Part shown: positions 38,074 through 38,834 of the stretch, piece by piece
How the letters are laid out: each line of letters begins with the position of its first letter
How positions within the stretch are numbered: the first letter of the stretch is position 1
Sequence record: PQ330092
Strand: one strand, 5' to 3'
From: Escherichia phage JP4
DNA length: 64,000 nt
Program-made: the position numbers and the translations under genes
The notes under the pieces: model-generated
The model's database searches: none
What the model saw: only the letters and a program-made list of their open reading frames with translations
Told to the model about the DNA's origin: nothing

Positions 38074-38300
38074 AAATGATTAATTTAACTTACCATGAAT
38101 ATCAAAAACGTTTAAATGCATCCAGAGATATAAGGATTCAAATATTCAATAACAAAAAATTGAAACCTGATACCAGAAGAATCAAAATCATAGAAGCCGT
38201 GTTGTGTAACTTCCTAGGGACTAACTATCAGGAAGGTAAGGTAGAAAACTATCTTATAGAACTCATGAATAGTATTGAAAATAAATGTAAGGGTAATTAA
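38070..38300 (+). CDS. Array paralog, short class (76 aa)
   Basis: ATGA overlap; motif LGTNYQEGKV. Confidence 0.7.
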   Translation: MKMINLTYHEYQKRLNASRDIRIQIFNNKKLKPDTRRIKIIEAVLCNFLGTNYQEGKVENYLIELMNSIENKCKGN

Positions 38301-38301
38301 C

Positions 38302-38541
38302 ATGAAAATGATTAAATTATCTCAAGCAAAATATAAAGAACGCCTGGTGAAAATTGCACCTGGACTTAATGAAATCCATCACGGAGAAGTCATTAAACAC
38401 GGAAATAAGATGATTATGAAACTTGAGTTAAAGGTGGGTGCATTCATAGGAACAAACTATCAGGAGTATTATGTAGATGAATACATAATCGCACTTAAGA
38501 GATATATTGGAAGAAAACTATATCTACAAACTAAAGAATAG
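38302..38541 (+). CDS. Array paralog, short class (79 aa; start refined)
   Basis: SD AAGGG then ATG; preceded by a 38-bp junction that is repeated identically before the next gene. Confidence 0.65.
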   Translation: MKMIKLSQAKYKERLVKIAPGLNEIHHGEVIKHGNKMIMKLELKVGAFIGTNYQEYYVDEYIIALKRYIGRKLYLQTKE

Positions 38542-38570
38542 TATTGAAAATAAATGTAAGGGTAATTAAC

Positions 38571-38834
38571 ATGCAAATGATCAATTTAAGTAAAGATGAA
38601 TATACCGAGCGTATGACAAAAATTACGCACAAACGTAATACAATCTATCACAACCCAGAAATTCAACACAGTAAGAAAATGATTATGATGCGTGAGTTAA
38701 AGATGGGTGTATTCTTAGGAACAAACTATCAAGATACAGAAGTAAATCGCTTAATCGCGGAGTTACTACTGGAAATCAGAGGTAAGCTGTACTTTCATCA
38801 AATGACCCAACCACTGAGGTGTACTAAGAAATGA
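38571..38834 (+). CDS. Array paralog, short class (87 aa; start refined)
   Basis: Same 38-bp junction and SD as previous gene; motif LGTNYQDTEV. Confidence 0.65.
   Translation: MQMINLSKDEYTERMTKITHKRNTIYHNPEIQHSKKMIMMRELKMGVFLGTNYQDTEVNRLIAELLLEIRGKLYFHQMTQPLRCTKK

Follow-up and report, generated by a model that had tools for sequence, protein, structure and literature searches.

How does an identical stretch of 38 nucleotides come to stand at the start of two neighboring genes whose own sequences have strongly diverged? This question is raised by a 64,000-nt stretch of the genome of Escherichia phage JP4 (record PQ330092; hereafter, the window), in which the 38-mer GAATAGTATTGAAAATAAATGTAAGGGTAATTAACATG (GAATAG...AACATG) is found exactly at positions 38267-38304 and 38536-38573 of the + strand, the copies lying 269 bp apart. 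We found no third match in the window, even when allowing three mismatches, and none of 100 shuffled sequences (0/100) gave a 38-mer match. Both copies end in the ATG of a gene of the same family: gene 16 (38302..38541; + strand; 79 aa) and gene 17 (38571..38834; + strand; 87 aa), whose proteins are 46% identical. The exact cassette, the two start codons and the roughly half-identical proteins are all as described in the original prediction, which was made from the window alone. The 38-mer is the longest exact direct repeat of the region 35000-43300 (the next one measures 26 bp). In an ungapped register of 269 columns (38240-38508 against 38509-38777), identity reaches 69% overall and 64% outside the cassette, and a perfect run of at least 38 positions is very unlikely in this register (permutation; p = 1.5e-5). 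At the left end of the register, 38240-38251 and 38509-38520 match at 11 of 12 positions, and the following 15 nt are poorly similar up to the cassette.

Genes 15, 16, and 17 belong to a large array of tandem paralogs. The main block (35117..41474; + strand) contains 29 head-to-tail genes with overlapping stops and starts, and two further members are located beyond it (42775-43223). The family comprises ~30-31 head-to-tail genes of 52-95 codons in the window and is characterized by the motif LGTNYQE. The alignment of ~31 members presents a mean column identity of 28%, with nearly invariant M, G, T, Q, and L positions (including G-T-x-x-Q), and a 14-copy DNA repeat family was detected within the array. 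Gene 15 (38070..38300; + strand; 76 aa), gene 16, gene 17, and other members match the family phrog_4148 of PHROGs end to end (E 1e-17 to 1e-27). The E-values of these three genes are 1.7e-24, 9.3e-27, and 7.3e-26, and their matches cover positions 1-72, 1-72, and 1-73 of the 74 positions of the profile, respectively (at least 70 each). The family phrog_4148 carries no functional annotation, and our searches returned no Pfam domain, no PDB sequence relative and no informative fold match. With the paralog alignment as input, AlphaFold2 predicts a three-helix bundle for gene 16 (pLDDT 96).

Over the region 35000-43300, the window shares 97.4% identity with Escherichia phage PBECO4, and 33-35 records of PBECO4/121Q-like jumbo phages (genus Asteriusvirus, 310-386 kb) match the array. 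As a whole the array is conserved across these records, but as a mosaic in which coverage and identity are very uneven. A word-indexed search for the family yielded 97 proteins, and every named or long-contig match was Asteriusvirus-like; an exhaustive profile search yielded 96 representatives among 1.84 billion, and a pattern scan of IMG/VR for the joint between gene 16 and the cassette gave 0 matches. Where the matches are named, the family appears to be confined to Asteriusvirus-like phages. The array was unannotated in every Asteriusvirus record examined, and we found no description of it in the searchable literature. It constitutes an undescribed but narrow phage gene family.

The two copies of the cassette are used in different reading frames. 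In copy 1 (38267..38304; + strand), the frame G|AAT|AGT|... encodes the C-terminus of gene 15 (...ELMNSIENKCKGN, or ...NSIENKCKGN), such that the cassette contains the last 11 codons of gene 15 with its stop, an AAGGG Shine-Dalgarno-like motif placed 8 nt before the start codon, and the ATG of gene 16. This 3' tail of gene 15 represents the source sequence of the cassette. In copy 2 (38536..38573; + strand), the frame is GAA|TAG and gene 16 (C-terminus ...GRKLYLQTKE*) therefore stops at bases 4-6 of the cassette. Copy 2 thus contains the last sense codon and the TAG of gene 16, an out-of-frame tail, the Shine-Dalgarno-like motif and the ATG of gene 17. The original prediction had correctly recognized copy 1 as the coding 3' end of the upstream gene and copy 2 as out of frame, but it placed copy 2 after a stop, whereas the stop lies inside the cassette, whose first 6 bases are still coding or stop.

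In the frame that is not used, the remainder of copy 2 (38542-38570) still reads NSIENKCKGN*, and copy 2 of phage UE-S1 reads NCIANKCEVDEHAND* in the same frame (read by eye from the sequence). Since this relic tail is readable in both the window and UE-S1, copy 2 descends from a tail of the gene 15 type. The same segment forms a non-coding spacer of 29 nt (38542..38570; + strand), the only true intergenic gap inside the array, and the spacer is a by-product of the frame-shifted relic tail. We rejected two other candidates at this site. For a programmed frameshift that would restore the NSIENKCKGN tail on gene 16, no slippery heptamer was seen, and the third helix of gene 16 is already complete in the model. 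The TTG codons at 38275 and 38544, which would add a shared MKINVRVIN extension, lack an upstream Shine-Dalgarno motif, and the depositors annotate the ATG starts.

One way to explain identical sequences at two gene starts is that the 38-mer is a functional element (a promoter, a translation-initiation region, an RNA structure or a protein-binding site) maintained by purifying selection. The 38-mer indeed precedes a start codon in both places, the AAGGG motif stands 8 nt before the ATG, and a weak sigma-70-like site is present (TTGAAA-17-TAACAT; 9/12). However, this site is among the weakest sigma-70-like sites of the array, and promoter-like sites are no commoner in the array than in shuffled sequences (44 vs. 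50.1; sd 6.2). The cassette RNA is not predicted to fold into a structure (MFE -0.2 kcal/mol, z +0.78; z from +0.7 to +0.9 for flanked versions), a search of Rfam returned no match, and no terminator-like site was found at the cassette. In addition, the first 22 nt are located upstream of anything that initiation needs, and at least five different sequences are found at these two junctions in relatives with the same flanking genes. Selection on such an element is improbable as an explanation of the identity, and we found no evidence in these sequences that the 38-mer does more than provide a stop, a Shine-Dalgarno motif and a start. Across the array, the spacing of 28 junctions ranges from -32 to +1 nt, with the single exception of +29 nt at 38542-38570, and terminator-like sites show no enrichment above chance. 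With its overlapping starts and stops and no enrichment of promoters or terminators, the array looks like a single long translationally coupled operon.

A second explanation is that gene 16 or gene 17 arose by a recent tandem duplication of one gene in situ, after which diversifying selection changed the gene bodies and left the junction unchanged. The units are arranged in tandem with a period of 269 bp and retain 64-69% nucleotide identity over ~230 nt, as this scenario would predict. Moreover, the dN/dS ratios of 0.4-0.5 are high for phage genes, and a ratio above 1, based on very few substitutions, was obtained in some allelic comparisons of other array genes (g09/TH47, g10/UB, g23/UE-S1, g28/EC.P1, and g28/121Q). 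However, the comparison of gene 16 and gene 17 gave a dS of ~0.94 and a dN/dS of 0.45 (Nei-Gojobori; gene-wide), which indicates that silent sites have diverged too. Other pairs of neighboring paralogs gave similar figures (dN/dS 0.37-0.52; dS 0.8-1.4), and the median dN/dS of allelic comparisons was 0.29 (n = 87 pairs). A gene-wide dN/dS above 1, the expected sign of diversifying selection, was found neither for genes 16 and 17 nor for the other paralog pairs. The diversifying selection that the original prediction invoked for the coding part is not borne out by these gene-wide ratios, although a minority of sites may be under it. In their bodies, genes 16 and 17 are old paralogs that evolve independently and under purifying selection. 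Given a dS of 0.94, the two genes are far too old for a neutral 38-mer to have stayed identical by descent alone: about ten differences would be expected in a neutral 38-mer of this age, and the pair of UE-S1 presents 11.

The ancestry of gene 16 also argues against the duplication scenario. Gene 16 has its nearest relative not in gene 17 but in a gene located between genes 13 and 14 in EC.P1, fEgEco12, CMSTMSU, and WPEC3 (82% nucleotide identity; dS 0.42). The 3' third of gene 16 is 79% identical to gene 5 and does not resemble gene 17, which suggests that gene 16 is itself a mosaic. Finally, the cassettes differ in phages of the G17 type (four mismatches) and in UE-S1 (11 mismatches) despite the same genes 16 and 17. 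Overall, a recent duplication followed by selection is an unlikely origin of this pair. Elsewhere in the array, gene 23 (39940-40161) presents one synonymous and 12 non-synonymous changes relative to UE-S1, and gene 28 (41009-41230) presents 1.5 synonymous and 13.5 non-synonymous changes relative to 121Q (0 and 5 relative to TH47). These two genes are the best candidates for positive selection in the array, with counts that are too small to call it.

We compared the orthologous region base by base in 17 relatives, and the cassette state of other records was inferred from percent identity; throughout, the evidence for recombination comes from the comparison of finished genomes. In UB and 121Q, gene 15, a single cassette and gene 17 follow each other, and exactly 269 bp are absent relative to the window. 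This length corresponds to a unit (38267..38535; + strand) composed of one cassette and a gene 16 body of 231 bp. Apart from this gap, UB and the window share 97-100% identity in genes 13-15 and 17. This precise difference, with one cassette kept, supports the recombination at the junction that had been proposed for this locus. The 269-bp unit is also missing from TH47, Turkey3, and ph0011. At this site, TH47, Turkey3, EC.P1, and ph0011 are without gene 16 and their gene 15 tail is a different allele (allele d), while fEgEco12 and CMSTMSU carry yet another allele (allele b) at the junction of gene 15 and gene 17. Gene 16 is found with at least 97% identity in 19 of 33 phage records.

The identity of the two copies varies among the phages that possess both. 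Copy 1 is of the same allele (allele a) in the window, PBECO4, BF17, SP27, G17, SHEFM2K, slurp01, and CRJP21, as well as in UB and 121Q. The copies match at 38/38 positions in the window, PBECO4, BF17, and SP27, as read directly, and this state was inferred for 11 records based on a 151-nt probe (99.3% identity). The match drops to 34/38 in G17, SHEFM2K, slurp01, and CRJP21 (seven records with the same probe), and to 27/38 in UE-S1. In total, the junction between gene 15 and the next gene presents at least five alleles among relatives, and alleles a, b, c, and d and their hybrids are distributed independently of the alleles of the flanking genes. The original prediction had called these junctions fixed, a description that is supported neither by this allelic diversity nor by the 4 or 11 mismatches, out of 38 positions, between the copies of other phages.

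The difference between the two most similar states is local. Copy 2 of the G17 type differs from that of the PBECO4 type by four substitutions within 10 nt (sites 38558, 38562, 38564, and 38567), which switch copy 2 between alleles a and b and are the sole differences over ~250 nt. We mapped this short conversion patch (38558..38567; + strand) on a table of the variable sites of nine genomes: no variable site was found among eight genomes in the 52 nt before the patch (38506-38557) or in the 197 nt after it (38568-38764). At the four sites, the G17-type sequence is that of the b allele at the gene 15-gene 17 junction of fEgEco12 and CMSTMSU. The cluster has the signature of a short-patch exchange or conversion, and it favors the gene conversion of the original prediction. 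The direction may have been either way: copy 2 may have been converted toward copy 1, or away from it by an allelic donor. Since allele a precedes gene 17 in the most divergent species (121Q) and in PBECO4-like phages alike, a fairly recent insertion may have left the 38/38 state as its original footprint, with no later homogenization involved.

Genomes from Korea, Poland, Germany, and other places, each sequenced independently, contain the same two-copy structure. In light of these genomes, an artefact of sequencing or assembly (for example, a chimeric or collapsed repeat) is extremely improbable, although the window does hold an assembly-style tandem copy of a terminal repeat (see below); nothing of this kind is specific to the cassette.

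Duplicated junctions were also observed at other positions of the array. In EC.P1, fEgEco12, CMSTMSU, and WPEC3, the relative of gene 16 between genes 13 and 14 is flanked by an exact 26-bp repeat, AAATGCAAATGATTAATTTAAGTAAA, with a spacing of 235 (a 235-bp insertion). This gene13-gene14 junction is present as a single copy in the window (37853..37878; + strand), and it is identical at 24 of 26 positions to the sequence immediately 5' of gene 17. Like gene 16, the inserted gene runs into the duplicated junction in another frame (...RNAND*). None of the genomes examined possesses a gene of the gene 16 type at both positions. Similarly, the gene18-gene19 junction (39043..39072; + strand; 30 bp) is found once in the window and is duplicated in G17, UB, and 121Q (29-31 bp exact; spacing 220-226) around an extra family gene, and an additional gene of 121Q is flanked by a 22-bp repeat. 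Altogether, three other junctions of the array present exact repeats of 22-31 bp around one-gene insertions of 209-235 bp in relatives. Gene copy number does vary among related isolates, in line with the unequal crossing-over first proposed. The question of whether junction identity is confined to one pair has a different answer in each case: it is in the window, where no other pair of junctions shares more than 18 nt, but junction repeats recur in the relatives.

Perfect direct repeats that bound an insert, with a close relative bounded likewise at a second site, could also point to site-specific or transposition-like insertion: gene 16 would then be a mobile cassette, and the 38-bp copies its duplicated target or attachment site. 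However, the two sites carry different repeats, 38 bp long at gene 16 and 26 bp long in EC.P1, and each is a copy of the junction at its own site. Usual target-site duplications are far shorter than 38 bp. There are no inverted repeats or hairpin, the 8-kb array contains only small family ORFs and no ORF of the size of a recombinase, and the insert is just another paralog of the family. We consider this mechanism very unlikely.

Taken together, the comparisons make it likely that non-allelic homologous recombination in the tandem paralog array both left the 38-bp copies behind as direct repeats and makes use of them. Short-patch gene conversion at the junction homologies is supported by the four-site cluster. 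The lasting similarity of the junctions would follow from what they encode, namely the conserved C-terminal tail of the family genes, their ribosome-binding site and their first codons. During replication or co-infection, these short stretches of homology would be open to non-allelic as well as allelic homologous recombination. Between genes 15 and 17, an unequal or illegitimate exchange in the past would have introduced a body of the gene 16 type and, behind it, a second gene 15 tail. After this insertion, gene 16 would end within the second copy of the tail, in a different frame, and the rest of this copy would persist as the 29-nt spacer that holds the Shine-Dalgarno motif and the ATG of gene 17. 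The junction copies would have a younger history, separate from that of the gene bodies. Short-patch exchange, with either copy 1 (ectopic) or a co-infecting relative (allelic) as its source, would determine how far the copies agree: at 38/38 positions in the PBECO4 lineage, at 34/38 in that of G17, and at 27/38 in UE-S1. Where the copies are identical, a precise loss of gene 16 is possible: recombination between them would delete exactly 269 bp and generate the configuration of UB and 121Q. We infer this order of events, in which UB and 121Q would represent deletions and not the ancestral state. The insertion may have proceeded through circle integration or through unequal crossover. The mechanism itself is ordinary, and the repeat is an ordinary recombination footprint.

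The rest of the array presents many differences of the same kind. Among ten arrays compared in pairs, we found many clean indels that span a single gene unit (206-235 bp) or a small number of units; their sizes are 206-235, 269, 379, 424, and 445 bp, and their breakpoint flanks overlap by 2-249 nt. Most one-gene indels overlap by 10-161 nt at their breakpoints, and the exact junction repeats that bound indels measure 22-38 bp. Between near-identical phages, the typical divergent block begins 3-17 nt past a gene start and stops 4-27 nt short of a gene end; for instance, gene 6 presents 82% identity between neighbors at 100%. The coincidence of these blocks with single genes suggests that whole genes are exchanged as alleles. 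We also observed that genes 19 and 20 share an exact coding repeat of 26 bp, TGCCGAAAGGAGTGCAGAAGTTTTAT (AERSAEVL; 39151-39176 and 39371-39396; spacing 220 bp). This repeat, the second-longest of the array, is possibly another conversion tract. In addition, a 154-aa protein from an ENA metagenome contig (P0001) fuses the homologues of genes 21 and 22 in frame (…HIRKRYMKHLTDDEH…). In this natural variant the stop at the junction is gone, which indicates that junction changes can also fuse neighboring family genes.

The closest described system is that of the PeSL (promoter-early stem-loop) cassettes found in the hyperplastic regions of T4-type phages (Arbiol et al. 2010, PMC2839356; Comeau et al. 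2014, PMC4122927). A PeSL is an intergenic module that combines a strong sigma-70-like promoter with a terminator stem-loop and mediates modular shuffling (PMC2839356; PMC4122927). Both PeSLs and the 38-bp cassette are short conserved repeats between small non-essential ORFs of a large lytic phage, and both act as sites of homologous exchange that lead to the insertion, deletion or replacement of whole genes among close relatives. In contrast to a PeSL, the cassette has neither a strong promoter nor a stem-loop; both features are defining, and the cassette is therefore not a PeSL. What it contains instead is coding sequence from the tail of family genes, with their ribosome-binding site and start codon, and the genes that are shuffled here are paralogs of one another. 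The PeSL-like promoter/stem-loop composites of the window are located in the terminal-repeat region and not in the array. The outcome is the same, but the locus fits better among the cases of unequal crossing-over and gene conversion within tandem gene families.

As a general principle, tandem gene families undergo unequal crossing-over and interlocus gene conversion (concerted evolution). The array resembles such families in its tandem homologous units, its copy-number polymorphism with breakpoints in homologous segments, and the short identical tracts shared by otherwise diverged paralogs. It departs from them in two respects: homogenization is limited to a few tens of bases at the junction and does not affect the gene bodies, and much of the exchange appears to occur between co-infecting phage genomes (an allelic mosaic) and not within one genome. 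Poxvirus 'genomic accordions' are recent gene amplifications under selection whose copies are recent and nearly identical. There too a tandem array expands and contracts by recombination in a large DNA virus, but the adjacent copies of the phage array present a dS of 0.8-1.4 and form a stable, diverged family of ~30 distinct genes. The array is not a recent amplification, and the cassette is neither integron-like nor transposon-like.

The value of the repeat is that it documents the turnover of a small accessory gene family in a large phage. Public genomes show the same gene at two positions of the array, each bounded by a duplicated local junction, as well as exact one-gene deletions and a four-base conversion patch. 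More tentatively, and with a good deal less confidence than the recombination itself, the array might be a modular arsenal of early genes (e.g., host-takeover or anti-defence binders built on one three-helix scaffold) whose coding junctions would act as portable recombination linkers. The linkers would consist of the C-terminal xKCK*/RSKL* tail, the ribosome-binding site and the N-terminal MxM(I)xL codons. Whole genes would be swapped, deleted or fused between co-infecting phages, and they would be relocated within the array, as gene 16 might have been between the 13|14 and 15|17 positions. Such a system would be a coding-sequence analogue of PeSL-mediated shuffling. If the array genes are indeed host-takeover or counter-defence factors, this shuffling would explain why near-identical phages that are therapeutic candidates differ in their repertoires.

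The array is adjacent to a large terminal repeat. We found an exact direct repeat of 14,905 bp in the window (1-14905 and 20115-35019; offset 20,114 bp), which fits two tandem copies of a ~20.1-kb terminal repeat, the first being cut by the window start. The boundaries of the unit are located at 14905/14906 and 35019/35020 (...GGGCGGGTAACCT|), and the record probably keeps both terminal repeats joined. The paralog array begins 98 bp past the inner boundary; in G17, BF17, and vB_Ec-M-J, it is located ~20-21 kb from the record end. The terminal-repeat unit (15100-35090) contains 110 consensus sigma-70 promoter sites, relative to 70 expected (sd 9). Twelve of these 110 sites are perfect (12/12), with 11 on the + strand and one on the - strand. 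Terminator-like hairpins are also more frequent than expected in the unit (28 vs. 11). The adjacent paralog array presents no such enrichment of promoters and hairpins. A PeSL-like composite, AAAGGGATTGACTCCGGTCAGTCCCTTT-GCTATTATAT, in which the -35 box lies inside the hairpin, is repeated in the terminal repeat at 28009, 31278, and 33536, with a variant at 23989.

Further observations concern the other end of the array. At 42480/42481, UB and EC.P1 carry an insertion of 1,241 bp, and TH47, ph0011, and fEgEco12 an insertion of 334 bp. The UB insertion encodes a protein of 269 aa (8285-9094 of the UB sequence), whose first ~65 residues correspond to the family domain (…LGTNYQEAAQEQYINALKEEIREK) and whose remaining ~200 C-terminal residues have no match in Pfam. 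The three-helix module therefore also occurs as the N-terminal domain of a larger protein. Finally, a second and unrelated family of small paralogs (phrog_13866 and relatives), which share the segment ...EEYFQxSLVxD..., has three members interleaved at the array end (41464-42791), and EC.P1 and fEgEco12 possess an extra copy of this second family with exact repeats of 20-32 bp at a spacing of 356 bp.
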